54,930 bases of DNA from a virus (taxonomy: Duplodnaviria; Caudoviricetes): the IMG/VR virus record IMGVR_UViG_3300049027_000115, positions 1 to 54,930 of that record, one strand, 5' to 3'. The notes beneath the pieces are model-generated. The model did not search any database. It worked only from the letters and a program-made list of their open reading frames with translations, and had not been told where the DNA came from. Shown in pieces: positions 6,758-32,989 of the stretch (position 1 is its first letter; every line of letters begins with the position of its first letter). Made by a program: the position numbers and the translations under genes.

Positions 6758-6765
6758 TCAAATAT

Positions 6766-6794
6766 GCCGGCGGCTTCGGTCGCCGGTTTTCTTT
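6766..6794 (+). terminator. Intrinsic terminator after the capsid gene
   Basis: GCCGGCGGC-TTCG-GTCGCCGGT stem with UUCG loop, then TTTCTTT. Confidence 0.8.
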
Positions 6795-6799
6795 CTCTT

Positions 6800-11078: not shown

Positions 11079-11622
11079 GCCGGTAACCCTGGCAATTGTG
11101 AAGGAATGGCTGATCATCGATCATAACGATGATGATGCTTTATTGACGCGCCTTATACCACAGGTTCGTGCAGCCATTGAAAATAAAACAAAACTGTCCC
11201 TGGTTGAGCGGGAAGTGGTAGTTACTGTTCGTCTTCATGGAGAATTCAAACTCCCCTACGGGCCGGTGAGGTCTATTACATCTGTGGTTTATAGCCCGGA
11301 TGCAGATCCGGAAACATTGACCACCGATGATTATAAGCTAAATGGCCAGGATCAAAAAGTTATTCGGATAAACAAGTGTGGCATGTCTCAGATCACCTAC
11401 TCCGCGGGTTATGGAGTGGTCGTTTCACCTGAATACAACAATCCAATACCCGAAGACCTGATGAATGGAATTCTTCAGGAAATCGCCTACCGATACGAAC
11501 ACAGAGGTGACGAAACAAACACGAAAAGCAGCGCCGGCAATGATACAGTGAACGCCATTGATGGAATCAGTTCAGGCGCCATGCAATATATAAAACCTTA
11601 CATCGGAATGGCATGGGTGTAA
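11026..11622 (+). CDS. Head-tail connector (gp6/gp15-like)
   Basis: EPVTLAIVKEWL..DDDALL, LPYGPV and YEHRGD motifs; probable start is ATG 11026. Confidence 0.88.
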   Translation: MQNDIVDIKRRQATSITEPVTLAIVKEWLIIDHNDDDALLTRLIPQVRAAIENKTKLSLVEREVVVTVRLHGEFKLPYGPVRSITSVVYSPDADPETLTTDDYKLNGQDQKVIRINKCGMSQITYSAGYGVVVSPEYNNPIPEDLMNGILQEIAYRYEHRGDETNTKSSAGNDTVNAIDGISSGAMQYIKPYIGMAWV

Positions 11623-11960
11623 GATTTACCATAGGCTCTTTGAAAGATAAAGTAACATTCAAAAAGAATGTTCGCGGCTCACTCGGCGCAGGGTCAAAAG
11701 ACGGGTATGTCGAATTTCTTACCACTCGGTGCAGCTTGGAGAAAAAGCGATCTGTGAGGGATAATGATCGAGGCCAGGTGGAGATCGTAACATGGTACTA
11801 TATGCGTTGTCGGTTTCAGGAGGCGCTGATTTCAAACCTGGCTTATTCAGTTATCTGCGAAATCAACGAGGAGACATACACGCTTCATGATTTCGAAGTG
11901 ATAGACCGGAAAAATCATTTGTACGAATTCATGATCAGTAAACCAAAACGGAATGGCTGA
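11613..11960 (+). CDS. Head closure / stopper protein
   Basis: Synteny; IGSLKDKVTF N-terminus; 115 aa. Confidence 0.7.
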   Translation: MGVRFTIGSLKDKVTFKKNVRGSLGAGSKDGYVEFLTTRCSLEKKRSVRDNDRGQVEIVTWYYMRCRFQEALISNLAYSVICEINEETYTLHDFEVIDRKNHLYEFMISKPKRNG

Positions 11961-12549
11961 TGCCTTTGGAAATATCAGGGTTGATGGGATCGAGGAGTTG
12001 CTCAAAGACATTGATTCGTACGATGCAAAAACGAGAGCAGTTATTCATAACGAGATCAAAGCTGCAGTACAAACCGTTGTACGCAATGCGAAGCGGCTGG
12101 CGCCAAAAGATCAGGGCGCACTGGCGGCAGGGATCAACTACCAGGAGGTAAAACAGACACTGTTCAGGTATTTCAGCCAGCAGGAGACAAGTAGTTACAA
12201 AGAATTTGGTACACGTCGGAAGAGAAAGGTTCCTCCTGAAGTATTGAAACTGGGATTTCAATTGCAGGCAACTGGGAAATCAGGTGGCACAGCAGAACAG
12301 GCATTGATATTTATAACAGCTTGGGTTAAACGTCAAGGATTCAGGTTTCAGAGTGCGGGAACGTTTAAGTCAGGGAAAAAGGCAGGACAGAATAAACCAT
12401 TGACACTAGAACAAACAGCTTACCTGGTATTTCGGAAGATTATGATGGTGGGATCGAATCCTCAACCGTATTTCTTCCCGCCATTACTGGCAGAAATACC
12501 GCTACTTGAAAATAGACTTCAAGCCATTGTAAACAACACGAAAATATGA
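11953..12549 (+). CDS. HK97 gp10-like tail completion protein
   Basis: AKRLAPKDQGAL, EFGT and PQPYFFP motifs. Confidence 0.85.
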   Translation: MADAFGNIRVDGIEELLKDIDSYDAKTRAVIHNEIKAAVQTVVRNAKRLAPKDQGALAAGINYQEVKQTLFRYFSQQETSSYKEFGTRRKRKVPPEVLKLGFQLQATGKSGGTAEQALIFITAWVKRQGFRFQSAGTFKSGKKAGQNKPLTLEQTAYLVFRKIMMVGSNPQPYFFPPLLAEIPLLENRLQAIVNNTKI

Positions 12550-12998
12550 ACCGAGAGAAGGCGATAAGGATGGGACACTATGAAGCGATCAAAGATGCGC
12601 TCACCTACGGCGGAGCTTCTGTTCATGTATATGACAGTGCCACTACTGGCGAAGTGCCAGATGAAAATATATATGTGTTGCTTACTTCACAGTCTTCTAC
12701 AAATAGCTCTGACTTTAGGCGGTTTCGCTGGAATGCAGTGCAGGCCTTTGAGATCGTGAGTAAGCAGTTAGGGTCCGTGAGTAAAGATATTGTGGATGAT
12801 ATCAGTGAACAGATTGAAGCGATTCTTATGTACGTGGACAATCAGCCCGGTAATGGCGGCATGATCACGCAGCCAGGTTGGGAGTTTCAAGATGTAATCC
12901 TTGAATCAGCGAATTACATCGATTTTGAAATAAGCCAAAACTTTTACGAGATAACCAAAGTATTGCAGATATCCTGCATAGCAACAAAAATCAGTTAA
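12546..12998 (+). CDS. Tail terminator protein (putative)
   Basis: Lies before the tail tube gene; VYD..YVLL pattern. Confidence 0.65.
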   Translation: MNREKAIRMGHYEAIKDALTYGGASVHVYDSATTGEVPDENIYVLLTSQSSTNSSDFRRFRWNAVQAFEIVSKQLGSVSKDIVDDISEQIEAILMYVDNQPGNGGMITQPGWEFQDVILESANYIDFEISQNFYEITKVLQISCIATKIS

Positions 12999-13016
12999 CA
13001 ATTAAAACGCAATAAA

Positions 13017-13451
13017 ATGCCCGGAATTACTATTAATGCGAAAGACATGCCTATTGAGCTGTCATTTGATAACGGTGTAACCTGGAAGGCACTCGTTTGC
13101 TTGAAAGATATCAGTGTCCCCTTAAACGCACCTGTTACTGCAGAGGACACTTACTGTGGTAAGAAGGTCGGTGTAGGCGATGTTGAGTTCAACCCCTCAG
13201 GAAACGCTGTATGTGAAGTGACCCCGGCAGTAAATGAAGTTTCAGCTGATGAGCTGGTGCAAAAAATGGTTGCCGGCACATCCTTCCTGTGGCGCATCCA
13301 GAATCCAACGGTTGGATCAGTTGGCGTAGGCTTGTACTATTCCGGCAGCTGTAAAGCAACCAATGTGACCATTACGGGCACCGCAAATGGATTGGTAAGC
13401 TTTTCATTTACGCTGACCGGGGAAGGCATATTGACAACCGTTAAACCGTAA
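13017..13451 (+). CDS. Tail tube (major tail) protein
   Basis: 144 aa, beta-rich, ends VSFSFTLTGEG; upstream of the chaperones. Confidence 0.8.
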   Translation: MPGITINAKDMPIELSFDNGVTWKALVCLKDISVPLNAPVTAEDTYCGKKVGVGDVEFNPSGNAVCEVTPAVNEVSADELVQKMVAGTSFLWRIQNPTVGSVGVGLYYSGSCKATNVTITGTANGLVSFSFTLTGEGILTTVKP

Positions 13452-13453
13452 GG

Positions 13454-13906
13454 ATGAACAACACAGGAAGATGCTCCATTCAGTTGAATGGAGAGCAGAT
13501 TGATTTATTGTTCGGCATGCCGGCAGTAGAATATATCGCGAAAAAGGTTGAAGAAGGCAGCATGGTACTGGATGATGATGGTAACACCATCGGCAATTCC
13601 AGCATTGCCTTCCTGATTCATGCTGGGTACTGGAACCATTGTATAGCTAACGGTTTGACACCCAAAAAAAAGATAGCTGATTTCTTTGATGCGGTTGAAG
13701 ATATGGTGGACACAGAAGAAGGCCAGCGTGATCTTGTCATTGTTGCAGAAACTTACAGGGATAGCAAAAGCACCAAAAAGCAGTTGGACCGCATTCAAAA
13801 ACAGGTAGAGGAGATAAAAAAAAAGACAGAAGAATTGAGTGGGAAGAAATCGAATCCTTCTGTTATGGAGAACTCGGACTCACCAGTGAGCAGTACTACC
13901 GATTGA
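13454..13906 (+). CDS. Tail assembly chaperone (G-like)
   Basis: Between tail tube and tape measure; contains the slippery site. Confidence 0.8.
   Translation: MNNTGRCSIQLNGEQIDLLFGMPAVEYIAKKVEEGSMVLDDDGNTIGNSSIAFLIHAGYWNHCIANGLTPKKKIADFFDAVEDMVDTEEGQRDLVIVAETYRDSKSTKKQLDRIQKQVEEIKKKTEELSGKKSNPSVMENSDSPVSSTTD
13819..13825 (+). other. -1 programmed ribosomal frameshift site A AAA AAG
   Basis: Codons ATA AAA AAA AAG; the -1 frame is open from 13825 into ORF 13903-14178. Confidence 0.85.
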
Positions 13907-14178
13907 CATACCGAGAATACCTGCTGAAAGCGGAAGGGCATAATCGGCAACAAAGCGCAATCAATAACCGCTTCCGGATGCAGGTATACTTATCGGTTAA
14001 GCCCTATTTGAAAGACCAGGATCTGACTGTATATGATTTCATGCCGTTACCGGATGATCCAACCCTGGAAGAGATCGAGAAAGCGGAGAGTGAAAGGCTT
14101 GAAGAGGCGGGAGCAGAAGCCAGGAAAGTAAGAGACCAGATTCTTTCAAAACACAAACAAAGAAATGGCGGGATTTAG
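13825..14178 (+). CDS. Tail assembly chaperone frameshift extension (T part of GT)
   Basis: -1 frame reads DRRIEWEEIESFCYGELGLTSEQYYRLTYREYLLKAEG...; the track ORF has only a TTG start. Confidence 0.8.
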   Translation, partial: DRRIEWEEIESFCYGELGLTSEQYYRLTYREYLLKAEGHNRQQSAINNRFRMQVYLSVKPYLKDQDLTVYDFMPLPDDPTLEEIEKAESERLEEAGAEARKVRDQILSKHKQRNGGI

Positions 14179-16261
14179 TGTAAATATCGGAGCAAATACT
14201 GCAATGTTCACGAAGACATTGGGAGACCTGCTTCGCCAATTAAGGTCATTTAAGAGTGGGTTAGAATCTGCAACGTCTCCTGATAGTATTGGTAGATTGA
14301 ATAGAGCAATTGAAGCCACAAAACAACGTATTGATGGACTCAGGGGATTTAGCGGATCTGGTTTACAAAATATTGCTGGCGGCGCGAATTCAGCTGCTCT
14401 TGCGCTTACAAATGTGGGTAGGGTAGCCCAGGATCTTCCCTTTGGTTTTATTGGAATTCAGAATAACCTGAATCCATTATTAGAATCGTTTCAACGATTG
14501 AAAGCAGAAACCGGCAGCAGTAAACTTGCATTGCAGGCTCTGGGAAATTCTTTGATAGGAGCCGGTGGAATTGGACTGGCGCTCTCTGTAGTATCATCTG
14601 CATTTGTGATTTGGCAAAATGGAATTGCCGGTTTCAATAAAAAAACTAAGGAAGCAAAAGAGGCAGCAGATGAACTGAAGAAAGTTATTCGTGATCTTGA
14701 TATCGTTCGCGGAGAGGCAGCTGCAAGCACACAGGGGCAAATCGCAACTGTAAATGCGCTCACTGCAGCCGTTCTCGATGAAACCCGATCACAAAAGGAA
14801 AGGAAAAGCGCACTGGACCAGTTGAAAGAAACAAACAAGAGTTATTTTGGTGATCTAACACTCGAAGCCAGTCAGCTTGCAACACTAAAAACAAGAGTTG
14901 ATGAATATACCCAGGCAATCATTAGACAGGCTGTTGTTAAAGGATTCGAGGAAGATATCGTAAATGTAAAGAAGGCGCAAGTCACTGCCGACAAAGATGT
15001 TGCAGCAGCCAGGTTAAATGTTGCCGATGCGCAAACAAAAGTAAACATAGCAAATCGTGAAGCACTTTCGTCTATTGGTGGCCGTGAAGGCGTTAGTAGA
15101 ACCAGGGAGCAGGCAAACGCTACCGACGATTTGAATGATGCTACAATCAAACTGCGGCAGGCTAATGAGAAGTCAACAAAGCTAAGGGAGCAGGAGTTGA
15201 TACTCACAACCCAAATTAACAAAGCTGTACTGGATGGACTTAATCTGAAAAGCCTTTCCGCCCCAGGTGGCAGCGGAGAGAAAGAAGATCCCGTGTTAAA
15301 GGCACTGAAGAAAGAACTGTCTGGTTACCAAAAGCAATTGGAAACAACGAACAAACTTCGCGAAGCCGGACTGTTACCACTCTTCCGTGAGAACGATGCA
15401 TTAGAACTCCAATTAAAAATACTGAACACTCTCAATGCGATTGACGCAAGAGAGGTGGTTATTAAAGCAAAACCTAAACTCGAAATTGATCCCACGCTTA
15501 ATGAACTGGAAATTACAAATGCATTTAAGGAATTTGGGGAAAGATCTAAACATCGCCCAATCTCGATTCCAATTTTCATAGCGCCCAAAGTGAAAATAGA
15601 TGTAGCAGGCGCCACCGGTAGTGAAGTGGCAGATGAGTCCGACTTCAATTCTCTCGTTAATGATGTTGTAAAGAAGGGAAATAAAAGCTTTTTTGAGATG
15701 AAAGAAAAACTAGAGAAAGCGCTAGGTGAATCAATTGCACAAATAAAATTTGACGGAAAAGTAGATGTTTTTGCAAGTATCGGCGAATCGTTTGGCGAAG
15801 CAATTGCCACAGCTGACTTTGGCGGTGGACTCAAGAAAGCCGCACAAAGCATATTCGGGATTATTGGAAGTGTCATGCAGCAAATTGGAAGGCAAATTAT
15901 TACCGCTGCGCTGGCCATCAAAGCACTGAAAAAGACAGTTGAAAGTTTTCTGATTGCCAATCCTGCTTTAGCAGTGATAGCAGGTATTGGTCTTGTAGCT
16001 GCGGGAGCTGTATTAAAAAATGTCAAATTCGATGGACCAAAGTTTGCAAACGGCGGCATTGTAACTGGTCCAGTGATTGGGCAAGTGGGAGAGATGCACC
16101 GACCTGAAGTTATTCTCCCTCTGGATCGCTTACCACAGATGCTGGCACAATATAATAATGGTGGCGGAGGCGGTGGAATCCAGCTTATTCCAATAGTGAA
16201 CAATGATGGGCTTTACCTGGCAGTGAAAAAAGGCGAGAGGAGCGTCGGAAGAAAATTCTAA
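14165..16261 (+). CDS. Tape measure protein
   Basis: 698 aa, Ala/Lys-rich and helical; QDLPFGFIGIQNNL; C-terminal FANGGIVTGP..GE..PEVILPL. Confidence 0.9.
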   Translation: MAGFSVNIGANTAMFTKTLGDLLRQLRSFKSGLESATSPDSIGRLNRAIEATKQRIDGLRGFSGSGLQNIAGGANSAALALTNVGRVAQDLPFGFIGIQNNLNPLLESFQRLKAETGSSKLALQALGNSLIGAGGIGLALSVVSSAFVIWQNGIAGFNKKTKEAKEAADELKKVIRDLDIVRGEAAASTQGQIATVNALTAAVLDETRSQKERKSALDQLKETNKSYFGDLTLEASQLATLKTRVDEYTQAIIRQAVVKGFEEDIVNVKKAQVTADKDVAAARLNVADAQTKVNIANREALSSIGGREGVSRTREQANATDDLNDATIKLRQANEKSTKLREQELILTTQINKAVLDGLNLKSLSAPGGSGEKEDPVLKALKKELSGYQKQLETTNKLREAGLLPLFRENDALELQLKILNTLNAIDAREVVIKAKPKLEIDPTLNELEITNAFKEFGERSKHRPISIPIFIAPKVKIDVAGATGSEVADESDFNSLVNDVVKKGNKSFFEMKEKLEKALGESIAQIKFDGKVDVFASIGESFGEAIATADFGGGLKKAAQSIFGIIGSVMQQIGRQIITAALAIKALKKTVESFLIANPALAVIAGIGLVAAGAVLKNVKFDGPKFANGGIVTGPVIGQVGEMHRPEVILPLDRLPQMLAQYNNGGGGGGIQLIPIVNNDGLYLAVKKGERSVGRKF

Positions 16262-18288
16262 TGGCGTATTTCCTTCACCATATCGTCGGATTCAAAAATC
16301 CTTTGAATGAAGATCTTTATATTGAGTTATACAAAAAGGACGTAGAGCCAGAAGCAGTGACTCCATTGTTAGCTATCAATTTCAAAATGTCCTATCCGAA
16401 TGGGGGCAAGTTTGATGGTAGTATCTGGGCCAGCGAAATCCAGCTGACTATCATGCTAGATACAACTGATGAGAAAACCTTCGATGACTTCATTGTTACC
16501 TTTGATGATGAATGGAAAGTAATCGCAAAAGATGATGACCAGGCAATCTTTACTGGATTTTTAACTCCCGGTCTTGGTCGCGCCGAGTTCCAGGATAAAC
16601 CATACGATATTACACTTCTGGCGGTTGATGGAATAGGATTGCTGAAAGGGGTTCCGTTGACAAAGCCTGATGGAAGTGTTTTTACCGGCATTAATCTGAT
16701 AAAAGATTATGTATCGGCCATTCTCGCCAAAACAGGGTTAGATCTCGATTGGCGGTTATACAGCAACGTTGTAGAATCATCAATGCAAGATCGTACACAA
16801 GACCCGCTAAAAGATACATTCAATCAGACAGGAATACATTGCCGGACGTTTCTGAAAGATCCTACAGAGTTCTATGATTGTTACACATGCCTTCAGCGAA
16901 TCTTTGGAGAATATTTTACGCTTTATCAGTGGAACGGAAAATGGGTTATACTCAGGATCGGGGAAGTGCAGGACAGCATAGGTATGAAGATATGGTATAC
17001 TGAATACAATAGTGCCGGAACCGTATTGTCTTCAAATCAACAATTGGATAACCCTGGGGCAATAGGCAGAGACAGGCTGATTCATCCGGTCGAAGTAGGG
17101 CAGTTTATCAGCTCGGATTTTGCCATAAAGTCCTGCCGTTATCAATACAACTACAGCCCATGGCCTGAAATCCCTGGTAACAGCACATTCGATCAGGGAA
17201 CAGAATTTAGAAGCGGTACCAACCCCGATGGCACAACGTATAAAGATTTTACCACTCCTAGTTGGACATACGGTGCAAAGTTCACCAGTAACTTACCAAA
17301 TCTAAATCCCACGTCTGATATAGCTTATCGCCGTTCTATATATGATGCCTATAACGTGGAAAAAGAGCGAAGAATTGTATTGGAACATTTGACAAGCGGT
17401 GAAAAAATTCTTCAAGCAGAACCATTCTTTATTAATATCGGAGACAAAATAAATATTGACTTTGATATAATGTATTTGAATGGTGGATCAGGTACTCGTA
17501 ATGCCGTGTATGCCTACATCGTCCAGGACGGAACAGGAACAAAATGGTTTTTGAGGCAGGCATACAGCGGCAGCATTCAGTTAAAACCTTATTGGGAGGC
17601 AAACATTGGAAATTCCATTCAACAGCAAAGTGACAACTTCGCTGAATGGAGCTCGGGGAGATGTGAAGCTCCTCCTTCTCCAGTTGACGGAACCATTTAC
17701 GTTGCAATGGCTTCAAATATATCCGGTAATACGCCTGTTTTTAGGAATTTCCGTATTGAATTTCTGCCTTTTATTGCTGGAGGTTACAAGCAATTGAAAG
17801 GGGACTACGCAGAGACAGCGCAGAATATCAATTTCAAAGATATTATTGAGGCTGAGGTGTTCATTTCCGATAGTCCGAGAAAAGTTTTTCAAGGATCACT
17901 ATACCGTTCCAACCTGCAGGACCTCACAACGCCTACCTGGCACCGCTATGGGAAAGCGGAATTAAGGCATTTTAAGGAGATCGGAGAGATTGCCAGGTAC
18001 AACTTTACATACAGAAGAATGTTTAGCGTGGAGGGTCCATTTGATGGTCTGAAATATACTCCTGTTGATAACGGTCTCGTAATTGAGCCTCTTAGTTTTC
18101 ACCGACACTACACTTTCCCTGATCACCCATTATTAAATGGTAGATACTTCGCGCTTGTTCCGCCATTGAACATTGATTACTCTGAAGGGCGGGCAGAAAT
18201 GAACATTGTAGAAGTTATCCTGGAAGGCGCCGGTGATGGAGATCAGTTGGGCGATACGCATATACCACTTAAATACTTATTCGTGTGA
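16261..18288 (+). CDS. Tail tip / baseplate hub protein (putative)
   Basis: Follows the tape measure gene; AVDGIGLLK motif; beta-rich. Confidence 0.65.
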   Translation: MAYFLHHIVGFKNPLNEDLYIELYKKDVEPEAVTPLLAINFKMSYPNGGKFDGSIWASEIQLTIMLDTTDEKTFDDFIVTFDDEWKVIAKDDDQAIFTGFLTPGLGRAEFQDKPYDITLLAVDGIGLLKGVPLTKPDGSVFTGINLIKDYVSAILAKTGLDLDWRLYSNVVESSMQDRTQDPLKDTFNQTGIHCRTFLKDPTEFYDCYTCLQRIFGEYFTLYQWNGKWVILRIGEVQDSIGMKIWYTEYNSAGTVLSSNQQLDNPGAIGRDRLIHPVEVGQFISSDFAIKSCRYQYNYSPWPEIPGNSTFDQGTEFRSGTNPDGTTYKDFTTPSWTYGAKFTSNLPNLNPTSDIAYRRSIYDAYNVEKERRIVLEHLTSGEKILQAEPFFINIGDKINIDFDIMYLNGGSGTRNAVYAYIVQDGTGTKWFLRQAYSGSIQLKPYWEANIGNSIQQQSDNFAEWSSGRCEAPPSPVDGTIYVAMASNISGNTPVFRNFRIEFLPFIAGGYKQLKGDYAETAQNINFKDIIEAEVFISDSPRKVFQGSLYRSNLQDLTTPTWHRYGKAELRHFKEIGEIARYNFTYRRMFSVEGPFDGLKYTPVDNGLVIEPLSFHRHYTFPDHPLLNGRYFALVPPLNIDYSEGRAEMNIVEVILEGAGDGDQLGDTHIPLKYLFV

Positions 18289-19670
18289 GCAGCGCAAACG
18301 ACATACAAGGACGCAACTGTATCTTTCAGATGAAAGTGGGTGATGAATATTTAGATGTTATGTGTGCGAAAACATGGAGCATCAATTTCACCACTGACAT
18401 GAAAGAGACAACCACAACACAAAGTGGATTTTGGAAGGAGTATCGTCCTCGAAAAATGTCATACACCGCTTCGTTCAACGGAGTGGTGATGATTATTGCT
18501 CCACAGGATAAACCCACGATCAAAAGTCTATTCCAGAATCAGCTGAATTTTTTGCCGGTCAATTACCGGATCATATTTAAAGACAACAGCGATGAATTAA
18601 TGATCATCACTGGACAACTCTTTGTGACAAGTACTGCTTTTGATGCGAACCCTATTAATCTTCTGAATGGCACTATCCAATTTCAAGGCAACGGCCCTGT
18701 CGAAATTACTGATGAAATTCCTGAATTCATTGATCTGACGGTTTCAATAACAACTCTCGATACAGCGACAGGTAAATTCCGGTTTGTGCTGGTGGATGAA
18801 AACAGTGCTATCATTTTCGACACTGCCACGCTGCCGGAAACTGCTGGTTCGGAAGGATGGATGGTGCCTGATCAAGTTATTACAAAACAAGTACTTTCCG
18901 GAAATTACTATTTCGGTTTCACCACGAACAGTATCAATAGTGATGAGAACGTATTCGACCTGAATACCCCAAGCCCGGGCCCTGTACACATGGAATTTGA
19001 TCACGAGAACCAGGAGTATAATAGTAGTCCGGTATTGCACGACTTTACGGCTGCAAGAACCGCGTCACTGAACATAGGAACTGAATTGCCGCCACCGCCT
19101 TGTGTTCCTGTATTCATCATCGGCATTCCAAGCCTACCTGATGGCCAGGTGAATGTTCCATACAATTATACTTTCGAGATAGATGGAACGGCGCCTATTG
19201 GTCTTACAATTAATGAAAGACCAGCATGGATGAATATTGCAATAATCGGTGATGATGTAGTGTTCTCTGGGACGCCTGATACCGATGGCGTAGGAATAGG
19301 TATTTCAATTACACTATCAAATTGTTCCGGTGCAACGACTGATTTTTCGGATTCCATTGATGTAAGTGCAGCCCCAATTGGCCAGCCCACAATTTTCTGG
19401 GAAATGTACAGATCAGGTAGGTTGATAATTAACAGAAATGGCGTGCGAGTTGTTGACGCAACAACTTTTCCTTCACTCGGAAATTTCGCAGCGCTTGCCG
19501 GTGACGTGATTCAACCTTTGCTGCAGGCACCTGGTCGTGATACGTCAGGTTTGACAATAACTGATAGTGTTGATGGGGTGATATATGTTGATACGGGCAT
19601 GACCCCTTTGGGAACCGCTTTCGTTGCAGCATTAGGACACAACTACACCATTGTAGCTTATGATGTTTAA
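18285..19670 (+). CDS. Tail protein: tail-tube-like N-terminal domain plus Ig-like domains
   Basis: N-terminus CAKTWSINFTTDMKETTT..WKEY..GTIQFQGNG resembles tube proteins; LPDGQVNVPY..PAWM..FSGTP is Ig-like. Confidence 0.6.
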   Translation: MSSANDIQGRNCIFQMKVGDEYLDVMCAKTWSINFTTDMKETTTTQSGFWKEYRPRKMSYTASFNGVVMIIAPQDKPTIKSLFQNQLNFLPVNYRIIFKDNSDELMIITGQLFVTSTAFDANPINLLNGTIQFQGNGPVEITDEIPEFIDLTVSITTLDTATGKFRFVLVDENSAIIFDTATLPETAGSEGWMVPDQVITKQVLSGNYYFGFTTNSINSDENVFDLNTPSPGPVHMEFDHENQEYNSSPVLHDFTAARTASLNIGTELPPPPCVPVFIIGIPSLPDGQVNVPYNYTFEIDGTAPIGLTINERPAWMNIAIIGDDVVFSGTPDTDGVGIGISITLSNCSGATTDFSDSIDVSAAPIGQPTIFWEMYRSGRLIINRNGVRVVDATTFPSLGNFAALAGDVIQPLLQAPGRDTSGLTITDSVDGVIYVDTGMTPLGTAFVAALGHNYTIVAYDV

Positions 19671-19681
19671 AAGGTAAAAAG

Positions 19682-22600
19682 ATGAAAATAAGCACTCAAG
19701 AGAGAGTAGCTTTCCGGGGTAAGTCCTGGCAGCTCCTTCTCTTCTTACTGATCCTTTACGGATCTTCCTTCGCACAGGGTTTCCCTGGCACAGACAGCTT
19801 GCGTAATTACAATACGCGCTACATTACCAACAATCCCAACACTGCCTTTACAAACTTGCGGCTGCACACTTTGTTGCGGGGCGTGATTGACTGGATTGAT
19901 ACTGCCAGGATAAGCGGCGGTGGAGGTGGCGGCTCTTTGGGCATTGATACAATCTACGCGATCAATGATTCCACTATCCGTTACAGGAAGAGTGGAGTAT
20001 TCCGGAATGTTGTCATAAAAGGGGTATATGATAATCGTCGTAAGGTCGATTCCATGTACCAGATAAATGATAGTACGATCGGGTATAAAATCAATGGGGT
20101 TCAGCGAACATTTATTGTAAGAGGATCTCCGGGATGGCAATTAACAGGCAATGCTGACACCGATCCTTCCAACTTTCTCGGCACCACAGATGAGAAGCCG
20201 CTCCGCATTGCTACCAACGGCGTGCAGCGGATCCTGGTGGACAGTGTTACCGGTAAAATAGCGTTCATCCAGGATAGCGATACACTATACCTCATTCCAG
20301 GTAGTGAGAACCTGATATCGGCTTCGCCCGGAACGGATCTTTCTTTAAAAACAGATAATGCATTACTGCGAATTGGAGGTGCGAAGAAGTTCGTAATAGG
20401 AGGCATTGATAACGGCGGCAATCCTGCAACAGATTCCTTCCTTGTTCGTAATCCTGTTGACAGTTTGGTGAAGGCTATGAGTACAGCCTTATTTGCCACA
20501 CAAGCAGCTCTCAATGATAGTGCGACTGCTTTACGAAATGCAATAGCTACAATGCTGGATAGTACGCTAGGAGTAATTTACCAGGCCGTGGGCTTCTCAA
20601 ATCTCAGCGATTTCACTAACAGGGGCGCCACAGCTTCAGTAGTAGGTGCTGACATAAGTTTTTCCGGTGGTGCAAATAACTTCAACCAAACACTGGAATA
20701 TAATATAGGTACGTTACTCGAACAGTGGCACCAATCCGCAGTATTTATCCCGACTGAAAAAACTTCCACATCATACGGATTTGGACTGGGCATACGAAGC
20801 ACCAATTCCAGTGCTGTGAATGTTACAGCAAAATTCGATGCCACTACCGGAAGCAATTCCGGCAAATTACTAATCTATGCAGGTTCCAATATATTGGTAA
20901 AGACAGGTGAAACAGCAATTGCCTTCAGTGCGAATGATTCGCTGGAGCTGCACGTGGAGCGCGCGACAGATTCGATTTACACATGGATATTCAATCGCAC
21001 ACAGAAGGTGAGCAGTCCTAAATTGTCCTACGGATACTCTTTTGCTTCTGATGCAACCGTATTCACACCCAATACTGGCCGGTTCGCTATTTCCAGCTTC
21101 GGTGGCACATTCAAAGTATCAGAGTTGACCATTACATCCAACACGCCAAAGCGTCCAGATGTCCTGATAATTGGAGACAGCAAGACTGCGGGATACTTTG
21201 CCAATTCTCCTTTCGACCGGTGGGCAGTCATGTTCAGGAAATCCTTTCCGAATACTGTAATTCAGGCGGGCAGTGCTGATAAGATCACTGACGCAATGGC
21301 GCGGTTGGATGAGACACTGAGCATTCTTCCCCGGCAGGTACTCTTATCTATTGGCGTGAATGACATCAGAGTGGGCGTAGACAGCAATACAATAAAAAGC
21401 AATTATACCACCTACGTAGCCTCTTTGCAGGCAGGTGGCGCAATGGTGTATCATCTATTGTCTATGAAGGAAGTTTCGCTGAACGCAGATTGGTTCAACA
21501 ACTTTATCATCCGCACCTGGCCGAATGAATACATCGATTCTAAAATTCAGTTCTGTAATGACTGTCTTGCTTTCGACAATATACATCTGAATAATAAAGG
21601 TAACACTGTAGTTGCTGGTGCTGTCATTAGCAGCGGCAAGTTGCAGGGGCAAACGAGTGTTGAAGATAATTCTTTGAACTCGGTATTGGCAAAAGGAAGT
21701 GTCTCAAATATAACGCCTATAATTGGATCCATCTCTCGTTTAGGTGGGACTGCGGCGGGCTCTTTTTCTGATCCAAAATTAATACTGACCAGCTCTACAT
21801 ATCCATCAATTGTTATGGAAACTGGTACGACTAATTTTGGCGGCGGCTCCATTGCATGGAAAACGAACAGAGGCGGTCCGAAAGTTAATCCTTCTCTATT
21901 CGGCGATAGCGTTGCTATGGCAATGGTTGTTCATGCCTACGATAATACCGCACGTACATGGGCGCTTTTTACAGCAACCAATTCGAGTAACCAGGTAACA
22001 GGATTCGCAATCAGACAACCAGATAGTGATTTCATCGGAACGAGATCGAGAGTGACAGCTCAGGCCGGACAGAACTTATATGCAGGATTTGAATTAGCAG
22101 GAACAGTGAATTTCAATGCTACACAAGCTGTCTTTGCTGTCAATGCAGCCACGCAGCCTGTAGACTTCTATAATCTCCCTTCTGTCAGCATTGATACTAC
22201 TACGTATAAGCCATTGGTTCGGCGTTCTGATGGCCGTACTTATACATCATACTGGCCTGTATATGGCGGCGGCGGGGCTGGCACGGTTACAGACTTTACA
22301 TTCACAGATGGAAATGGCTTCGATGGAACCGTATCTACATCAACTTCAACGCCAACATTATCAATTACTACATCTTTGACAACTGGCAGTGTTCCGTTCA
22401 TCGGTGCAGGCGGCGCGTTGTCGGAAGATAATGCAAATCACTTTTGGGATAATTCAAACAAACGTCAATCTATAGGAGCAGGCACGAGCCCATCTGCTCG
22501 ATTGCATATAAACAGCGATGCTCTTGGCGGTACCACTACAGGAACGTCGTTAAACTCCTCCGGTATTTTTTTATCGAGCACCACGGCTGCTACGAATGGT

Positions 22601-23533
22601 GCACAACAAATGAGCCCCGCGATAGTGATGCGAGGAAATGGGTATGGTACCACGGGATCTGCAAGCCAGACAGTGGATTGGAAAATGCAGGTATTACCCA
22701 TCCAGGGAACTACTCCTTCTGCTCAGCTAGTTTTTTCACCGAGCATTAATGGAGCAACTTATACTTCGCCTATTAATTTTACTTCGGGTGGCATGATCAA
22801 TGCTGGTACTCTGGTGACCACTGGCGCTATCGTTACCGGATCAGCATCCTTCCTTGGATGGCAGGGAAGATCGACCATGTATTCACCTGCTAATGGCAAT
22901 ATTCGTCTTACTAACCAGGCCGGTACTGATTTCGGCTTATTGATTTTTGGAGATGCTACTTCTTCTTTTCCAGCGCTTCAACGTAGTGGTTCGGGGTTGA
23001 TTTTACGTCTCGGTGATAATAGCGCCGATGCGCCACTTACCGCTTCAGGCCTTACACTTTCCGGCCTAACGGGAACTGGTACGCGCCTTTCTACCACTTC
23101 CTCGACCGGCGTGTCCGGTGCCATTACCAACGGATCTGATGGACAAGTGATGACAATGGTAAGCGGATCCCCGGCATGGACCAATAAAGATTTCGAAAGC
23201 GGGACGTATACACCGACCGTGTCCGGATTAACCAACGTTACTTCAAACACTCCTCAAAATGCTACCTGGATGCGTGTCGGAAATACTGTAACAGTTGCCG
23301 GCGCTATAGATATTGGTACGGCATCCATTGGTACCGTTTTCAGTTTATTTCTATCCCTTCCAATCGCTTCGAATTTTACTGGTTACGATGGCGGCGGAAC
23401 TGGGGGTTATGCGTTAGGGACGAATTGCTATACCCTGACCACGAATGTCGCCAACGATGTAATGCAATTGCAAGGTACATCCGAAAACACCGGGATGACT
23501 ATCACGTATCATTTCACATACACCATCAAATAA
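19682..23533 (+). CDS. Tail-fibre-like protein with Sec signal peptide and central SGNH/GDSL esterase domain
   Basis: Signal ...WQLLLFLLILYGSSFA|Q; SGNH blocks IIGDSKT, GVNDI, DNIH; G/T/S-rich fibre segments; C-terminal GTYTP..WMRVGNTVTV..LP fibre-tip pattern. Confidence 0.75.
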   Translation: MKISTQERVAFRGKSWQLLLFLLILYGSSFAQGFPGTDSLRNYNTRYITNNPNTAFTNLRLHTLLRGVIDWIDTARISGGGGGGSLGIDTIYAINDSTIRYRKSGVFRNVVIKGVYDNRRKVDSMYQINDSTIGYKINGVQRTFIVRGSPGWQLTGNADTDPSNFLGTTDEKPLRIATNGVQRILVDSVTGKIAFIQDSDTLYLIPGSENLISASPGTDLSLKTDNALLRIGGAKKFVIGGIDNGGNPATDSFLVRNPVDSLVKAMSTALFATQAALNDSATALRNAIATMLDSTLGVIYQAVGFSNLSDFTNRGATASVVGADISFSGGANNFNQTLEYNIGTLLEQWHQSAVFIPTEKTSTSYGFGLGIRSTNSSAVNVTAKFDATTGSNSGKLLIYAGSNILVKTGETAIAFSANDSLELHVERATDSIYTWIFNRTQKVSSPKLSYGYSFASDATVFTPNTGRFAISSFGGTFKVSELTITSNTPKRPDVLIIGDSKTAGYFANSPFDRWAVMFRKSFPNTVIQAGSADKITDAMARLDETLSILPRQVLLSIGVNDIRVGVDSNTIKSNYTTYVASLQAGGAMVYHLLSMKEVSLNADWFNNFIIRTWPNEYIDSKIQFCNDCLAFDNIHLNNKGNTVVAGAVISSGKLQGQTSVEDNSLNSVLAKGSVSNITPIIGSISRLGGTAAGSFSDPKLILTSSTYPSIVMETGTTNFGGGSIAWKTNRGGPKVNPSLFGDSVAMAMVVHAYDNTARTWALFTATNSSNQVTGFAIRQPDSDFIGTRSRVTAQAGQNLYAGFELAGTVNFNATQAVFAVNAATQPVDFYNLPSVSIDTTTYKPLVRRSDGRTYTSYWPVYGGGGAGTVTDFTFTDGNGFDGTVSTSTSTPTLSITTSLTTGSVPFIGAGGALSEDNANHFWDNSNKRQSIGAGTSPSARLHINSDALGGTTTGTSLNSSGIFLSSTTAATNGAQQMSPAIVMRGNGYGTTGSASQTVDWKMQVLPIQGTTPSAQLVFSPSINGATYTSPINFTSGGMINAGTLVTTGAIVTGSASFLGWQGRSTMYSPANGNIRLTNQAGTDFGLLIFGDATSSFPALQRSGSGLILRLGDNSADAPLTASGLTLSGLTGTGTRLSTTSSTGVSGAITNGSDGQVMTMVSGSPAWTNKDFESGTYTPTVSGLTNVTSNTPQNATWMRVGNTVTVAGAIDIGTASIGTVFSLFLSLPIASNFTGYDGGGTGGYALGTNCYTLTTNVANDVMQLQGTSENTGMTITYHFTYTIK

Positions 23534-23541
23534 TTACAAAC

Positions 23542-24375
23542 ATGACTACCACGACACGTCTCGATATACCATTTAGCTCCGGCAGAGCTGTTCCAACGGT
23601 TTTTCATAAATCATCCAACGCGCCGGCAGATGCACCACTCATCATCTTCGGCCCTGGTAGCGGTGAAAACCTAAGCAGAGGCCCAGTGACTGCTACTACT
23701 CTCACGGAACGATACAATAACCTCGTGAGTTATGGCCATCATAAAACTCTTGCCGCGAATGCAGACAAGATGGGTTTCCATGTGCTGATACCGTTGTTTG
23801 TACAGGAGTGGAACAACTGGGTTCCTGCGTGGACCGGTGGTACTTACATCGAAAATATTATTGATTGGGCTGTTAAAAATCTTCCCATCGATCCAACACG
23901 CATCATCCTGATGGGATATTCCGAAGGTGGCTGCATGGTGCTGGATGCGTTGACCAGGAACGAGAGATTAACTGCAAAGATCGCTGGCGGAGTAGTTCTT
24001 TCGGGTGGAGGTGTAAGTAATCCTACATGGAAATTGATCGCAGACTTTCATATTCCAGTTTGGTTTTACCACGCGAAAGATGATACTAGTCCGGCACCAT
24101 ACTCCATGAGTGTATCGAATGTTGAATCCATCCGAAAGACCAGCGCTGATCCGGCTCCTGTTTTTCACCAGATCCCCAGTGGTGGACATAATGCTGGACC
24201 TACGGTTGGCCTCACGGACTTGGCCATGTACAATGCGGCGTTAACGTGGAAGGCCGGAAGTGTACCAGGCACCGGTAACCCAGAAGAACCGGAAGAGCCT
24301 GCAAAAACGATTGTCGCCAAGTTGGAGATCACACTGTTCAGCGACGGTACAACCGAGACAAAGAAACTTCAATAA
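23542..24375 (+). CDS. Alpha/beta-hydrolase (esterase/peptidase-like)
   Basis: IDPTRIILMGYSEGG nucleophile elbow, HAKDD, GGH; start ATG 23542 after an AT-rich leader. Confidence 0.8.
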   Translation: MTTTTRLDIPFSSGRAVPTVFHKSSNAPADAPLIIFGPGSGENLSRGPVTATTLTERYNNLVSYGHHKTLAANADKMGFHVLIPLFVQEWNNWVPAWTGGTYIENIIDWAVKNLPIDPTRIILMGYSEGGCMVLDALTRNERLTAKIAGGVVLSGGGVSNPTWKLIADFHIPVWFYHAKDDTSPAPYSMSVSNVESIRKTSADPAPVFHQIPSGGHNAGPTVGLTDLAMYNAALTWKAGSVPGTGNPEEPEEPAKTIVAKLEITLFSDGTTETKKLQ

Positions 24376-24395
24376 CCCATTTCGTATATCCGCCC

Positions 24396-24659
24396 ATGGT
24401 ACAGAAAAATGATACAGTCAACAAAGTAAAAGCAACTGCTTTCAACTGGGTTTCGATGACCCTTATTAGCATCGTCGGTTGGCTTGTAATGGACATGCAT
24501 GCAGATTTAAAAAGTGTCCTACAGGTGATCCCAGTAATGCGATTGGAAATAGACTATTTGAAAGACAACAGGCTTGTTGACCGGCTGAAGATGCACCAGC
24601 TTCTACCAAAGGGCAAGCATGAGGATGAAATAAACTACGATTCATTAACACAAAAATAA
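24396..24659 (+). CDS. Single-TM lysis-region protein
   Basis: One hydrophobic helix followed by a short coiled coil. Confidence 0.55.
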   Translation: MVQKNDTVNKVKATAFNWVSMTLISIVGWLVMDMHADLKSVLQVIPVMRLEIDYLKDNRLVDRLKMHQLLPKGKHEDEINYDSLTQK

Positions 24660-24662
24660 AAA

Positions 24663-24962
24663 GTGATGGAAACAACTACGACCTCGAAACAGTACACCCT
24701 CAATGTCAAGGATGCCCTCAGGGGCCTTCTCATGGCTGTTCTTGGTGCAGTCCTTACAGCCTTATATCCGGTTGTATCTGATGGTTCATTCGATTTCAAC
24801 TGGAAATCAATTGCTGCAGGCGCAGTAACTACCGCCATTGCCTACCTGCTCAAAAACTTTTTCACTCCAACAGAAGTAGTGGTGACCAAAGTGCCAGAAG
24901 AGAAAGTGAAGCAGGTTCAGAAAGGGACCGCTGATGTGGTGATTCAATCGAACAGGAAATAA
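24663..24962 (+). CDS. Holin (putative, 2 TM)
   Basis: Two TM segments, AYLLKN motif, charged C-terminus; in the lysis cassette. Confidence 0.7.
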   Translation: MMETTTTSKQYTLNVKDALRGLLMAVLGAVLTALYPVVSDGSFDFNWKSIAAGAVTTAIAYLLKNFFTPTEVVVTKVPEEKVKQVQKGTADVVIQSNRK

Positions 24963-24989
24963 CATTCATAACCTACAAATACAACAACC

Positions 24990-25451
24990 ATGAGTTTAGG
25001 AAAATTCTTACGCAAGCTGTGGCTTGGTATAGCAAACCTCTTTAAGAAGATTGACAAAGAGGTGAAGGAAATTGTTCCGATCGCTATCGGCATTATCGAG
25101 AACATTAAAAAAATCACTGACACACATATAGGAGATGTGATCACTGCTATCATCCCCGGCAACCTGGATGATAAGATCCATGACCAGTTGAAAGAGTTTC
25201 TGCCGAAAGCAATATTGAATCTTACGCTGATCGGTGATATCGCGGCTATCGAGGATCCGAATGAAAAGCTGAAAGCGATCCTTGCGAAAATTAATGTGAG
25301 CCCGGATGATACCAAGAAAGTTTTCTACCACGGGCTTGCATCACTTGTACTGGAACGCCTGGCCGACGGCAAATTTGACTGGTCCGATGCCACGGCCGTC
25401 GCAGAGTACTATTACCAGCACATCCTTAATGAGGAAGAAAAGGAGGATTGA
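24990..25451 (+). CDS. Hypothetical lysis-cassette protein with cationic amphipathic N-terminus
   Basis: MSLGKFLRKLWLGIANLFKKI; between holin and endolysin. Confidence 0.6.
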   Translation: MSLGKFLRKLWLGIANLFKKIDKEVKEIVPIAIGIIENIKKITDTHIGDVITAIIPGNLDDKIHDQLKEFLPKAILNLTLIGDIAAIEDPNEKLKAILAKINVSPDDTKKVFYHGLASLVLERLADGKFDWSDATAVAEYYYQHILNEEEKED

Positions 25452-25454: not shown

Positions 25455-26090
25455 ATGCTGATTACAGAAGAACAACTCAAAAATATTGCGACCCGCATGC
25501 CGGATCCGTTGGTAACAGAGATCACCGGGCTCATCAATTTGATTTGCCCTGACTTCGGCATGAACAGAGATGTGCTTCAGGAATTCTTACCAAACGTCCT
25601 GCACGAATCGGATGAATTCACCAGGCTGGAAGAGAACCTGAACTACTCTGCCAAACGGCTTACAGAGGTGTGGCCCAGTCGGTTCCCGAATATCGCAGCC
25701 GCCCAGCCCTACGCCAACAACCCGCGCGGTCTGGCTAATAAAGTGTATGGCGGCCGAATGGGCAACGAGCAGCGCAATGATGGCTGGGACTTCCGTGGAG
25801 GGGGTGCCATTCAACTTACTGGCCGCGGCATGTACTCTGCGTTCGCAAGATTCATGCTGGATCGCTTCGGGATGAAGAGGACAGCGCAGGAGTGGGCAGA
25901 GCTGATCCGGACAAACCAGAAGTGGAGCATGTATGCCGCATGCTGGTTCTTCTCTGTCGCCAAAGACCTGAATGGCCTGGCAGTGAACGATGAGATGAAA
26001 GTGATAGTAAAGAGGATCAATGGGGGCTTTAACGGGCTCGATGATCGCATGAAGTACTATGTACTGTGCAAGAAACATCTTCCTGAATAA
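25455..26090 (+). CDS. Endolysin, glycoside hydrolase family 19
   Basis: HES..EENLNYS, DGWDFRGGGAIQLTGR and INGGFNGLDDR motifs. Confidence 0.93.
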   Translation: MLITEEQLKNIATRMPDPLVTEITGLINLICPDFGMNRDVLQEFLPNVLHESDEFTRLEENLNYSAKRLTEVWPSRFPNIAAAQPYANNPRGLANKVYGGRMGNEQRNDGWDFRGGGAIQLTGRGMYSAFARFMLDRFGMKRTAQEWAELIRTNQKWSMYAACWFFSVAKDLNGLAVNDEMKVIVKRINGGFNGLDDRMKYYVLCKKHLPE

Positions 26091-29753: not shown

Positions 29754-31313
29754 ATGACAACAGCGTTTGGGTATATGCGCCTTTCAGGCGAGGACCAATC
29801 CTTCTATTCCACCGAGTTTCAGGAGGCGGGCATTCGTGAGTATTGTAAGCGACATGGTATTGAGCTGAAACAAATCTTGCTGGATAATGGAGAGAGCTCC
29901 TATACTTTTGAACGCAAAGCCTTCAAAGACATGGAGGCGCTTTTTAAAAAGCACAAGGCAGATTATCTTATAGTCTACCACCTGGATCGATTTGGCCGAA
30001 ACATGGCCGAGGCAATGCTGAAGGTAAAGTACTTCCTTGATAAAGGGATCAAGGTCCGCGATATAAGTGAGCCTTTGGATATGGATGATACGGACATGAA
30101 CACGTTCATGATGCGTACCATGAAGTTCATGGCTGCTGAAACAGAATTGCACCGGATCCGGGCAAGAACTCAATCCGGTTTGCGCCAGGCAAAATTGAAC
30201 GGCAGGTTTGCGGGCGCCGCTCCTTATGGCTACCGCAATGGCAGAGACGAAGAAAGCAAAAGTGTGCTGATAGTTGAAGAGGAAGAAGCAACCATCGTAA
30301 GAAAAATTTTTCAACTATACATTGCTGGCGCTACAGTTGAAACGATCAGGAAGATCGTTAAGGAAAAAGGGTTCAAGAAAACTGGAACCTCCACCATACA
30401 ACGTATGCTGGCCAATCCTGTATATGCCGGCCTCGTTCATGTGCCAGGAATAAAAAATAGTCCAGCGCAGACAGTAAAAGGAATTCACACCGCGCTGGTG
30501 ACAGAATACGATTATTATCATGTGCAGGAAAAATTAAATCGAAAGACTGTCATCACCCAAAACCGGGAAGAGGTTCCTTTGCGGGGTGTATTAAGATGCA
30601 CATGCGGAGCATTGATGACAGCCGGCAATTCCAGAAATAAGGTGGGCAATTATTTTTGGTATTATGTATGCCGGAAAGGGCACAAGGTGAATCTTTCTGC
30701 TATTAAAATATACAAACAGTTTATTGAACTACTGCAGGCGCTTTCGCTTAAAGAGCGCGAGGTCCAACAAATTCGCATTAAGCTGACAGAAAAAATGCAG
30801 GGCTTTTTGAGCAACCATGAATCCAAAGAGAAAGAGATCCGCAAACGTCTTTCTATAGTCGAAAACAAAATACAGACAGCGGAAGAGCGATATCTCACTG
30901 GGATTGGCAGCGAGAAAGCTTATCACAAAGTGATGACTGAGATGAAAACAGAGCGTGCGAGAATATATAACGAACTCGCCCAGGCAACTACTAACGCCAG
31001 TGTATATTGGGAGCGGCTGGAAGTTGTTTTAAACACATTGGAAAATGTCGCTGAGGTATTCGAAAAATTCTCGTTAGAAAAAAAACATCAGTTCATAAAC
31101 CAGGTGTTCAACCACTCTCTTAACCACGATGGTGCTATCTATCGAACACAAAAATTGCACGAAGTTTTTCGGCATAAGACAAACGAACTCAAAGAAAAAG
31201 GGCTGCTCCATGTGGACAGCCCTGTAGTTGATTTGAGAAGTACTCTCGTGAGTACCGGGGACGAGAGCCCAATCGAACTCATAGACAGACTTTATAAGGT
31301 GCTGGCAGGGTAA
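29754..31313 (+). CDS. int: Large serine recombinase (integrase)
   Basis: GYMRLS catalytic Ser, DRFGRN, APYGY, NPVYAG, Zn ribbon CTCG..YYVC, coiled coil. Confidence 0.95.
   Translation: MTTAFGYMRLSGEDQSFYSTEFQEAGIREYCKRHGIELKQILLDNGESSYTFERKAFKDMEALFKKHKADYLIVYHLDRFGRNMAEAMLKVKYFLDKGIKVRDISEPLDMDDTDMNTFMMRTMKFMAAETELHRIRARTQSGLRQAKLNGRFAGAAPYGYRNGRDEESKSVLIVEEEEATIVRKIFQLYIAGATVETIRKIVKEKGFKKTGTSTIQRMLANPVYAGLVHVPGIKNSPAQTVKGIHTALVTEYDYYHVQEKLNRKTVITQNREEVPLRGVLRCTCGALMTAGNSRNKVGNYFWYYVCRKGHKVNLSAIKIYKQFIELLQALSLKEREVQQIRIKLTEKMQGFLSNHESKEKEIRKRLSIVENKIQTAEERYLTGIGSEKAYHKVMTEMKTERARIYNELAQATTNASVYWERLEVVLNTLENVAEVFEKFSLEKKHQFINQVFNHSLNHDGAIYRTQKLHEVFRHKTNELKEKGLLHVDSPVVDLRSTLVSTGDESPIELIDRLYKVLAG
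31228..31280. other. Candidate attP inside the 3' end of the integrase gene
   Basis: Inverted repeat CTCTCGT-N11-ACGAGAG with imperfect outer arms GTTGATTTG/CCAATCGAAC. Confidence 0.4.
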
Positions 31314-32551: not shown

Positions 32552-32989
32552 TTATTTTGAAAAAGTAATAGGGCCGAATTCTTTCGCAATATCAACAAGT
32601 TCGTCCCACGACTTCCTGAGAGGGCTGTTTTTTGATCCACCATAGTATGTTGGATCAAATGTTCGAGCCGTTGTAACTCCATAAAGGCTTAGATGGATAT
32701 CTAAGGCATGTGTTCCTGTAAAGACCATACAGGTATCTTTTATAGAAATTCTTAATTTTGTTGAAACACTCTGTTTTGGATGCGACTTTTCCCCAGTAGA
32801 AATCAATTTTAAAGAATCGTTTTTGTGTTCAATTGTATATCCTTTTTCAAATAAAATAACAGCAAGTTTATTCATCATGGTGTTAGCTGAATCAGTTATG
32901 TGAACTATTACTTTGGTGGCTTTCTTTGGTGGAGTTTGTGATAAAGAAAACAATGGTAGTAAGAGAAAGAATACAGTTATCAGTTTCAT
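32552..32989 (-). CDS. Exported protein (moron)
   Basis: Signal MKLITVFFLLLPLFSLS|Q; DSA and DSL sequons. Confidence 0.75.
   Translation of the reverse strand: MKLITVFFLLLPLFSLSQTPPKKATKVIVHITDSANTMMNKLAVILFEKGYTIEHKNDSLKLISTGEKSHPKQSVSTKLRISIKDTCMVFTGTHALDIHLSLYGVTTARTFDPTYYGGSKNSPLRKSWDELVDIAKEFGPITFSK

Follow-up and report, generated by a model that had tools for sequence, protein, structure and literature searches.

How does a protein encoded at the tail-fibre position of a tailed phage come to carry the marks of a protein that a bacterial host would export and glycosylate? The question is raised by an open reading frame (ORF) of 1283 aa, located at 19682..23533 on the + strand of the IMG/VR virus record IMGVR_UViG_3300049027_000115 and hereafter called the fibre ORF. 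The whole record, which comprises 54,930 bases, is classed as linear and has a CheckV completeness estimate of 72%, was analysed; it is referred to below as the window, and positions are those of the window unless another genome is named. To the best of our knowledge, tailed-phage assembly has been cytoplasmic in all the cases studied. From the letters of the window, a first-pass annotation had interpreted the product of the fibre ORF as an exported, glycosylated fibre-like protein, acting either as a late-joined virion part or as a free enzyme. The analysis reported here supports this interpretation.

The predicted signal peptide (residues 1-31, 19682..19774, + strand) has the build noticed at first pass, ending in SFA before a glutamine: four basic residues in its n-region (K2, R8, R12 and K14), a hydrophobic core at about residues 17-26, S29 and A31 at positions -3 and -1 of the putative cleavage site, and Q32 at position +1. 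Among the structural proteins of the window, only the fibre has such a leader. The first homology search retrieved 70 proteins, most of them alike only over their first ~130 residues, at 60-76% identity. A profile of the mature N-terminal domain (N-domain), run against 1.84 billion representative proteins, gave 261 matches at E<=1e-3, with 137 at E<=1e-10; the leader statistics refer to the best 150 of these 261 matches minus the window's own entry, i.e. to 149 representatives. In nearly all the best 150, the N-domain begins at residue 19-25. A complete leader is present in 141 of the 149 representatives: 138 pass a heuristic of our own (14 or more residues ahead of the domain, including K/R and a hydrophobic core), and in the other three the leader is followed by an insert of 25-35 aa. 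The remaining eight have short or partial N-termini, five of which still end in Ala before Gln. Four representatives that had seemed leaderless turned out to be these three proteins with leader and insert, plus one that looks truncated; no clear leaderless member with the N-domain was found among the 149.

Gln occupies the boundary in 130 of the 138 proteins that pass the heuristic, and lies a few residues upstream in the other 8. The residue that precedes it in those 130 is Ala in 89 cases, Ser in 21 and Gly in 16. It is the feature that is conserved, not the sequence: in 94 exactly anchored proteins, pairwise identity averages 24% over the 17 residues preceding Gln and 74% over the 41 that follow it, and leader features that are kept while the sequence drifts are the signature of a working signal peptide. 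In addition, the leader is read through in all eight related viral loci examined, and proteins related to the esterase or to the tip of the fibre (see below), with unrelated N-domains, also carry leaders. These features make it likely that the fibre is exported and processed.

The second mark is the motif D-(S/T)-(A/I/L/V/M/T), which is presented in the accessible part of PMC8550257 as the O-glycosylation sequon of Bacteroidota. As far as the available text of PMC12871550 goes, the O-glycan of these bacteria is assembled on undecaprenyl phosphate at the cytoplasmic face, then flipped, and is attached to proteins in the periplasm; glycosylation is confined to non-cytoplasmic proteins, the motif is over-represented throughout the phylum, and the glycan's outer part is species-specific and often methylated or acetylated. 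Sequon counts were compared with expected numbers, obtained for the fibre from 5000 shuffles, and the reversed motif served as a control for the sets of proteins. The fibre contains 15 sequons against 6.07 expected (P = 0.0006); 11 of them fall in residues 38-295, where 1.52 +/- 1.15 are expected and none of the 5000 shuffles reaches 11. Total, distribution and individual triplets are identical to those listed by the first-pass annotation. The 988 residues that follow (296-1283) hold four sequons for 4.4 expected, i.e. no excess. The lower counts given at first pass for other proteins were also found again, the capsid and tape measure proteins having one sequon each and two small proteins, a leader-bearing one (32552-32989, - strand) and a transmembrane one (24396-24659), two each, within the range of two to three then given.

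Six of the 11 sequons, at residues 38, 73, 89, 96, 123 and 130, lie in the N-domain and are kept in 60, 59, 59, 60, 53 and 53 of 60 relatives, respectively. Substitutions at positions 2 and 3 of these sites remain almost entirely within the motif; site 123, for example, is found as DTA, DTI, DTM, DTL, DTV, DSI and DSM. Because the N-domain is highly conserved overall, more weight was given to the variable remainder of the proteins, where 60 relatives show 626 sequons against 266 expected (reversed motif, 249), and 84 further representatives, used as a replication, show 663 against 304 expected (reversed motif, 324). Ten leader-bearing relatives with other N-domains have 87 sequons for 50.0 expected and 51 reversed motifs. 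No excess is seen in the control sets, made of leaderless phage proteins and leaderless fibres: the 19 leaderless structural proteins of the window have 16 sequons (17.8 expected; reversed motif, 23), the 82 upstream ORFs of the eight related loci have 78 (76.3 expected; reversed motif, 95), eight leaderless proteins that share the fibre tip, two of which are possibly 5'-truncated calls, have 35 (35.2 expected; reversed motif, 30), and the leaderless fibres gp22-26 of phage crAss001 have 16 (13.1 expected; reversed motif, 15).

The residue specificity of the excess was read from panels in which all 20 residues were placed at each motif position, using 130 proteins (113,845 residues). At position 1, only D is enriched (2.30-fold), the other 19 residues ranging from 0.64 to 1.28, with E at 0.68. 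The residues enriched at position 3, namely L (2.97), V (2.48), I (2.47), T (2.07), A (1.93) and M (1.57), are the published six. Outside the motif, Cys reaches 2.12 on only nine counts and S 1.26, F, W and Y lie at 0.41-0.86, and the remaining residues at 0.22-0.59. A generic strand-start pattern made of Asp, a hydroxyl residue and a hydrophobic residue is disfavoured, because such a pattern would not exclude the aromatic residues. From the base of the fibres to their distal end, the excess falls from 10.2-fold through 4.4-, 3.5-, 2.6-, 2.0- and 1.2-fold to 0.94-fold, and is 0.76-fold in the last 150 residues. Two other origins of the excess were considered and rejected: a general compositional bias, on account of the reversed-motif control, the 20-residue panels and the leaderless controls, and inheritance from host secreted enzymes captured as distal modules, on account of the peak at the fibre-specific base and the absence of any excess distally. 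The sequons are kept in homologues, and are enriched also in their non-homologous variable parts with the specificity of the published motif. Leader and sequons have both passed the comparison with homologues that the first-pass annotation had named as a possible refutation. Selection for the sequon implies that the protein must meet the periplasmic machinery, and so lends support to the use of the leader that is independent of the leader itself. That the fibre is glycosylated appears, on balance, probable.

As to the protein that carries these marks, its identification as a tail fibre starts from the position of its gene. The order of tape measure (14165-16261), 675-aa tail-tip protein (16261-18288), 461-aa tail-tip protein with a tube-like N-domain (18285-19670) and fibre is found in the window, where all four genes are on the + strand and the first three products have no leader, and in all eight related viral loci. 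In the window, the fibre is followed by an alpha/beta-hydrolase, small proteins and an endolysin, i.e. it stands before the lysis genes, in the tail-fibre position assigned at first pass.

The domain anatomy, all on the + strand, points the same way. The mature protein begins with the conserved N-domain (residues 32-150, 19775..20131), a putative tail-attachment module that is 46-82% identical in related phages and holds the six conserved sequons. Within it, the tandem repeat that had been described as about 35 aa long is borne out: its two copies of ~27-35 aa (residues 88-114 and 122-148, 19943..20125), with two sequons each, align with a score of 76 vs 20.4 +/- 4.2 for shuffles (maximum 36), and each is predicted to form a beta-hairpin (strands 97-112 and 131-146). 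A variable proximal shaft follows (residues 151-296, 20132..20569), with five sequons and a predicted long helix at residues 258-299. Hairpins and helix were read from a low-confidence AlphaFold monomer model (residues 1-300; pLDDT 61.6, pTM 0.22), which was used for secondary structure only. The confident model of residues 296-700 (pLDDT 83.9, pTM 0.82) comprises a jelly roll and then an alpha/beta/alpha SGNH domain. The former, a predicted lectin-like beta-sandwich at about residues 297-487 (20570..21142), has legume-lectin fold matches with a target-normalised TM of ~0.6. The latter, an SGNH/GDSL esterase domain at about residues 494-650 (21161..21631), had been overlooked at first pass and was found by Pfam (PF13472 at residues 497-600, 39.4 bits vs a cut-off of 32.9); it also has fold matches, and its motifs GDS (498), GVND (558) and DNIH (632) are intact and correspond to what we take to be blocks I (GDS), III (GxND) and V (DxxH) of the SGNH family. 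A G/T/S-rich distal shaft (residues 651-1130, 21632..23071), with no family match and no sequon excess, leads to the tip (residues 1131-1283 plus the stop codon, 23072..23533). The tip is 39% identical (E 2e-15) to the C-terminus of P0195, a leaderless tail fibre of 1202 aa that matches PHROG tail-fibre families at 5e-45, in agreement with the fibre-tip-like C-terminus proposed earlier. Among the relatives that share the N-domain, the C-terminal modules are swapped (SGNH, pectate-lyase, BNR and SASA).

The fibre ORF itself has no direct match to a tail-fibre family, as PHROGs returned only phrog_14008 (function unknown, E 0.002) and Pfam only SGNH. No type IX sorting domain was found, and the only NCBIfam match at E<=0.01 is a weak esterase. 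Searches of the sequences in the Protein Data Bank (PDB) with the whole fibre and with an alignment of the 675-aa protein gave no match. Because of gene position, tip homology and jelly roll/SGNH content taken together, the protein is very likely a receptor-binding tail fibre with a receptor-modifying esterase.

An SGNH esterase within a tail fibre is an already known kind of protein. The fibre has fold matches (E 1e-16 to 1e-17) to the SGNH tail proteins of Pseudomonas phages KPP21 and LIT1 and to crAss001 gp25, with which it shares an esterase placed inside a receptor-binding protein that likely binds and deacetylates a surface polysaccharide. A further comparison is gp63.1 of Escherichia coli phage G7C, an SGNH tail protein that is an O-antigen deacetylase. 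Unlike the fibre, crAss001 gp25 has neither leader nor sequon excess, and cytoplasmic assembly is assumed for the phage SGNH proteins. The top PDB fold matches (E 6e-10 to 1e-8) are CE2-type and acetyl-xylan esterases (2WAA, 2WAO and 7TOH), in which a beta-sandwich likewise precedes the SGNH domain; these, however, are free secreted enzymes, and over the whole chain they differ from the fibre (TM 0.32-0.40, rmsd >11 A, identity 10-14%).

Whether a leader-bearing protein of this kind can be part of a virion is best judged from the closest cultured relative, Cellulophaga phage phi10:1 (KC821618). The window phage is a temperate siphophage (serine integrase, 29754-31313), and phi10:1 is likewise a siphophage of a Bacteroidota host; its gp088, a structural protein annotated from tandem mass spectrometry (MS/MS), is 22% identical to the 675-aa protein (E 6e-7). 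Similarity to the fibre was found in no cultured phage, phi10:1 included: tblastn of residues 1-333 gave no match, and residues 301-1283 gave one short match, in an uncultured virus. In phi10:1, five consecutive genes after the tail tip (gp091-gp095, 11646-18677 in that genome) encode proteins with leaders ending in A, G or S before Q, gp095 being a pectate lyase; the window phage, in contrast, has one such gene. The products of gp091-094 are annotated in the record as structural proteins 'based on experimental MS/MS proteomics analysis', so leader-bearing distal tail proteins do reach the virions of a Bacteroidota siphophage. Because these proteins stand at the same position, we favour, between a late-joined virion part and a free enzyme, the virion route, and consider it likely that the fibre is present on virions.

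The following route may be proposed. The fibre would be made as a pre-protein and exported unfolded via the host Sec translocon. Signal peptidase I would cut after Ala31, and Gln32, the new N-terminus, would be cyclised to pyroglutamate according to the Q-rule (rule and cyclase are covered by the available part of PMC10653852). The protein would then fold and oligomerise in the periplasm, where the general O-glycosylation system of the host would decorate its sequons, mostly in the proximal quarter (residues 38-295), so that the receptor-binding tip at the distal end would stay bare. Meanwhile, fibreless particles would assemble in the cytoplasm, and would encounter the fibre only once the inner membrane is breached by the holin, or afterwards in the lysate; the leaderless endolysin would fit such a holin-dependent lysis. 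The conserved N-domain would dock on the tail tip, and adsorption would involve binding and deacetylation of a surface polysaccharide by the jelly roll and SGNH module. To the whole chain, from export of the fibre and its glycosylation by the host to its joining the tail at lysis, we give about an even chance.

Two alternatives deserve discussion. The fibre ORF may encode a protein that is exported without entering the virion, namely a free periplasmic, surface-bound or released receptor-destroying esterase, the particle binding its host via another protein. Such an enzyme might serve superinfection exclusion in lysogens, or might strip acetyl groups from surface glycans to help the progeny escape. 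The leader and the sequons speak for this as much as for the late-joining fibre, the enzyme module resembles secreted bacterial carbohydrate esterases, and the phage, having a serine integrase, is temperate; moreover, in the available part of PMC10367356, five genes with Q-rule leaders in Porphyromonas gingivalis phages, of unknown function, are read as modifiers of the host envelope. If the particle were to use another protein, however, the structural module, contiguous from the terminase to the lysis genes, offers no other candidate for a fibre or receptor-binding protein; the fibre ORF is the only fibre-like gene of the record, since, of the large ORFs besides it, one encodes a DnaB-like helicase, one a DNA methyltransferase and one a protein without known function. 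The tip is homologous to true fibre tips, and a conserved N-domain combined with swapped distal modules, directly after the tail-tip genes in 8/8 loci, is the architecture of an attached receptor-binding protein. In addition, the phi10:1 record lists leader-bearing proteins from this position as virion components, and no C-terminal sorting domain of the type IX secretion system was detected that could carry the protein beyond the periplasm. A free esterase is therefore unlikely.

The other alternative keeps the protein on the virion and gives up its export: the leader-like N-terminus would not be used for export during infection, and the fibre would join the tail in the cytoplasm, or the pool would be split between two locations. 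The hydrophobic helix could then have another role: it might, for example, be buried in the tail tip, tether the protein transiently to a membrane, or insert into a membrane at infection. This would agree with the cytoplasmic assembly noted above for all the tailed phages studied; the N-domain starts exactly at the end of the leader, so that the helix could belong to the attachment element, and the n-region, unusually long at 16 residues, might slow targeting. A structural helix, however, has no need of small residues at -3/-1 with Gln at +1, as seen in 126/130 proteins, in a sequence otherwise free to drift to 24% identity, and the same type of leader is carried by proteins with unrelated N-domains. 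Nor does a cytoplasmic protein have any reason to display a periplasmic sequon with the published specificity and a gradient from base to tip, considering that the leaderless proteins of the same phages are at chance for it. A fibre that is never exported thus seems improbable.

Finally, an annotation artefact, in which the true start would be the TTG at residue 40 and the leader would not be translated, has in its favour only that the stored gene call P0002 (1244 aa) starts there, and is highly improbable, as Q32, T37, D38 and S39, all 5' of the TTG, are invariant in 42/42 aligned relatives, an equivalent leader is read through in all eight related loci, the stop of the upstream gene is followed 11 bases later by the ATG at 19682, and the interval from 19682 to the TTG contains no further ATG, GTG or TTG; the downstream true start that could have undone the first-pass annotation is thereby excluded. 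It should be noted that the public call, by omitting 19682-19801, loses the leader, and that several relatives have similarly shortened calls, which retain only the end of it. Automated annotation may thus hide this feature.

Several points weigh against the reading of an exported, host-glycosylated fibre joining the tail at lysis. The leader was called by a heuristic of our own and by family conservation, and the related proteins that enter the sequon counts are not statistically independent. The N-domain sequons, given how well conserved their surroundings are, could have a structural function, e.g. as helix caps or strand starts. Furthermore, six sequons are inside the supposed docking domain, where heavy glycosylation could hinder docking, and docking that comes late and is limited by diffusion seems an inefficient step. 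Nothing is said of leaders or their cleavage in the MS/MS annotation of phi10:1, and the leader-bearing proteins of this phage are poor in sequons (5 vs 13.2 expected; reversed motif, 18). As these proteins are below chance, leader and sequon richness are separable, and glycosylation is no general companion of the leader. In crAss001, the best-studied Bacteroides phage, the fibres and spikes (gp22-gp26, 14369-25008 in that genome) have no leader and no sequon excess; export is hence not obligatory for the phages of this phylum, which make their fibres in two ways. The assignment of the host to Bacteroidota is indirect: the only named relative is from a metagenome-assembled genome of a Pseudobacter sp., the sole cultured relative infects Cellulophaga, and the leaders are of Q-rule type. 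Two scans of reference genomes, one using the alignment of the N-domain and the other that of the 675-aa protein, turned up no relative and no prophage copy. Lastly, fibre and phage were studied here through sequence and predicted models.

The separate elements have precedents. The known substrates of Q-rule signal peptidase I and of O-glycosylation in Bacteroidota share with the fibre the build of the leader, Gln at +1 and the sequon, judging from the accessible parts of PMC10653852, PMC8550257 and PMC12871550; they are cellular envelope proteins, whereas the fibre ORF encodes a virion-type protein of a tailed phage. The nearest precedent is the P. gingivalis phage study (PMC10367356), whose Q-rule proteins are, like the fibre, products of Bacteroidota phages predicted to be cut before Gln; unlike the fibre, they are not identified as tail fibres in the portion of that paper available, which contains no analysis of sequons either. 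No description of an exported or glycosylated tailed-phage fibre was found in the literature searched, whose coverage excluded most subscription journals. Within those bounds, and those of the available text of PMC10367356, what is new here is the combination of Sec leader, Q-rule and sequon excess on a tailed-phage fibre. The present analysis adds a temperate siphophage lineage with a populous fibre family, the 20-residue panels, the gradient from base to tip, and leaderless controls sharing the same tip.

The remaining genes of the record may be described briefly. The contiguous structural module starts with the terminase (441-1805), which is followed by a portal, a Mu-F-like protein and a prohead protease; 3' of the latter come the capsid (5483-6757), the head-tail connector (10960-11622) and the tube protein (13017-13451). 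The N-domain of the 461-aa protein (18285-19670) resembles a tail tube protein (phrog_1407 at 1.5e-15; Pfam Phage_tail_2 below cut-off), and with four sequons (0.87/100 residues) this protein is the densest among the leaderless structural proteins. Directly 3' of the fibre, a leaderless alpha/beta-hydrolase of ~277 aa (23542-24375, + strand; Abhydrolase_2, E 1e-6) represents a second esterase-type gene; it has a 31-residue match to the N-terminus of a 390-aa ORF in one of the related loci (L002). Three small proteins with hydrophobic segments (24396-25451) and the endolysin (25455-26090) follow on the same strand. On the - strand, 32552-32989 encodes a 145-aa protein with a short leader ending in Ser before Gln, two sequons and no PHROG match; it probably belongs to the lysogeny region as an exported accessory protein.

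In the interval that separates the capsid and head-tail connector genes, the + strand carries two ORFs without family match (6764-7390 and 7387-8163), an FkbM methyltransferase (8399-9016), a protein of the GT11 fucosyltransferase family (9004-9804) and a GT4 glycosyltransferase (9993-11078), all of them leaderless. The GT4 gene is present in 7/8 related loci, the flank of the eighth (L005) beginning downstream of the gene, and a GT11 fragment lies at the edge of another (L009). The methyltransferase/GT11/GT4 cassette could remodel the O-glycan of the host, alter the host surface or glycosylate virions directly, and is possibly linked to the fibre. It is a long shot that the phage dictates the sugar coat of its own fibre and that it stands for a large, so far unrecognised class of Bacteroidota tailed phages that finish assembly across the inner membrane at lysis. 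Should this be true, the cassette would act at the cytoplasmic face on the lipid-linked outer O-glycan, the host would transfer this glycan to the sequon-dense base of the fibre, and the virion would display a fibre shaft sheathed in phage-specified glycan, with a bare tip.

The family statistics translate into concrete predicted sites, namely pyroglutamate at position 32, eleven sequons in residues 38-295 and a tip free of glycan. To our knowledge, every component of a tailed phage is produced and put together in the cytoplasm. If the proposed route is true, virion assembly would gain a new compartment, with Sec, signal peptidase and periplasmic glycosylation, together with a late docking step. 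Host glycosylation genes would then be determinants of phage infectivity. This would bear on the prediction of host range and on the production of Bacteroidota phages, as fibres made in E. coli would come without the modification.

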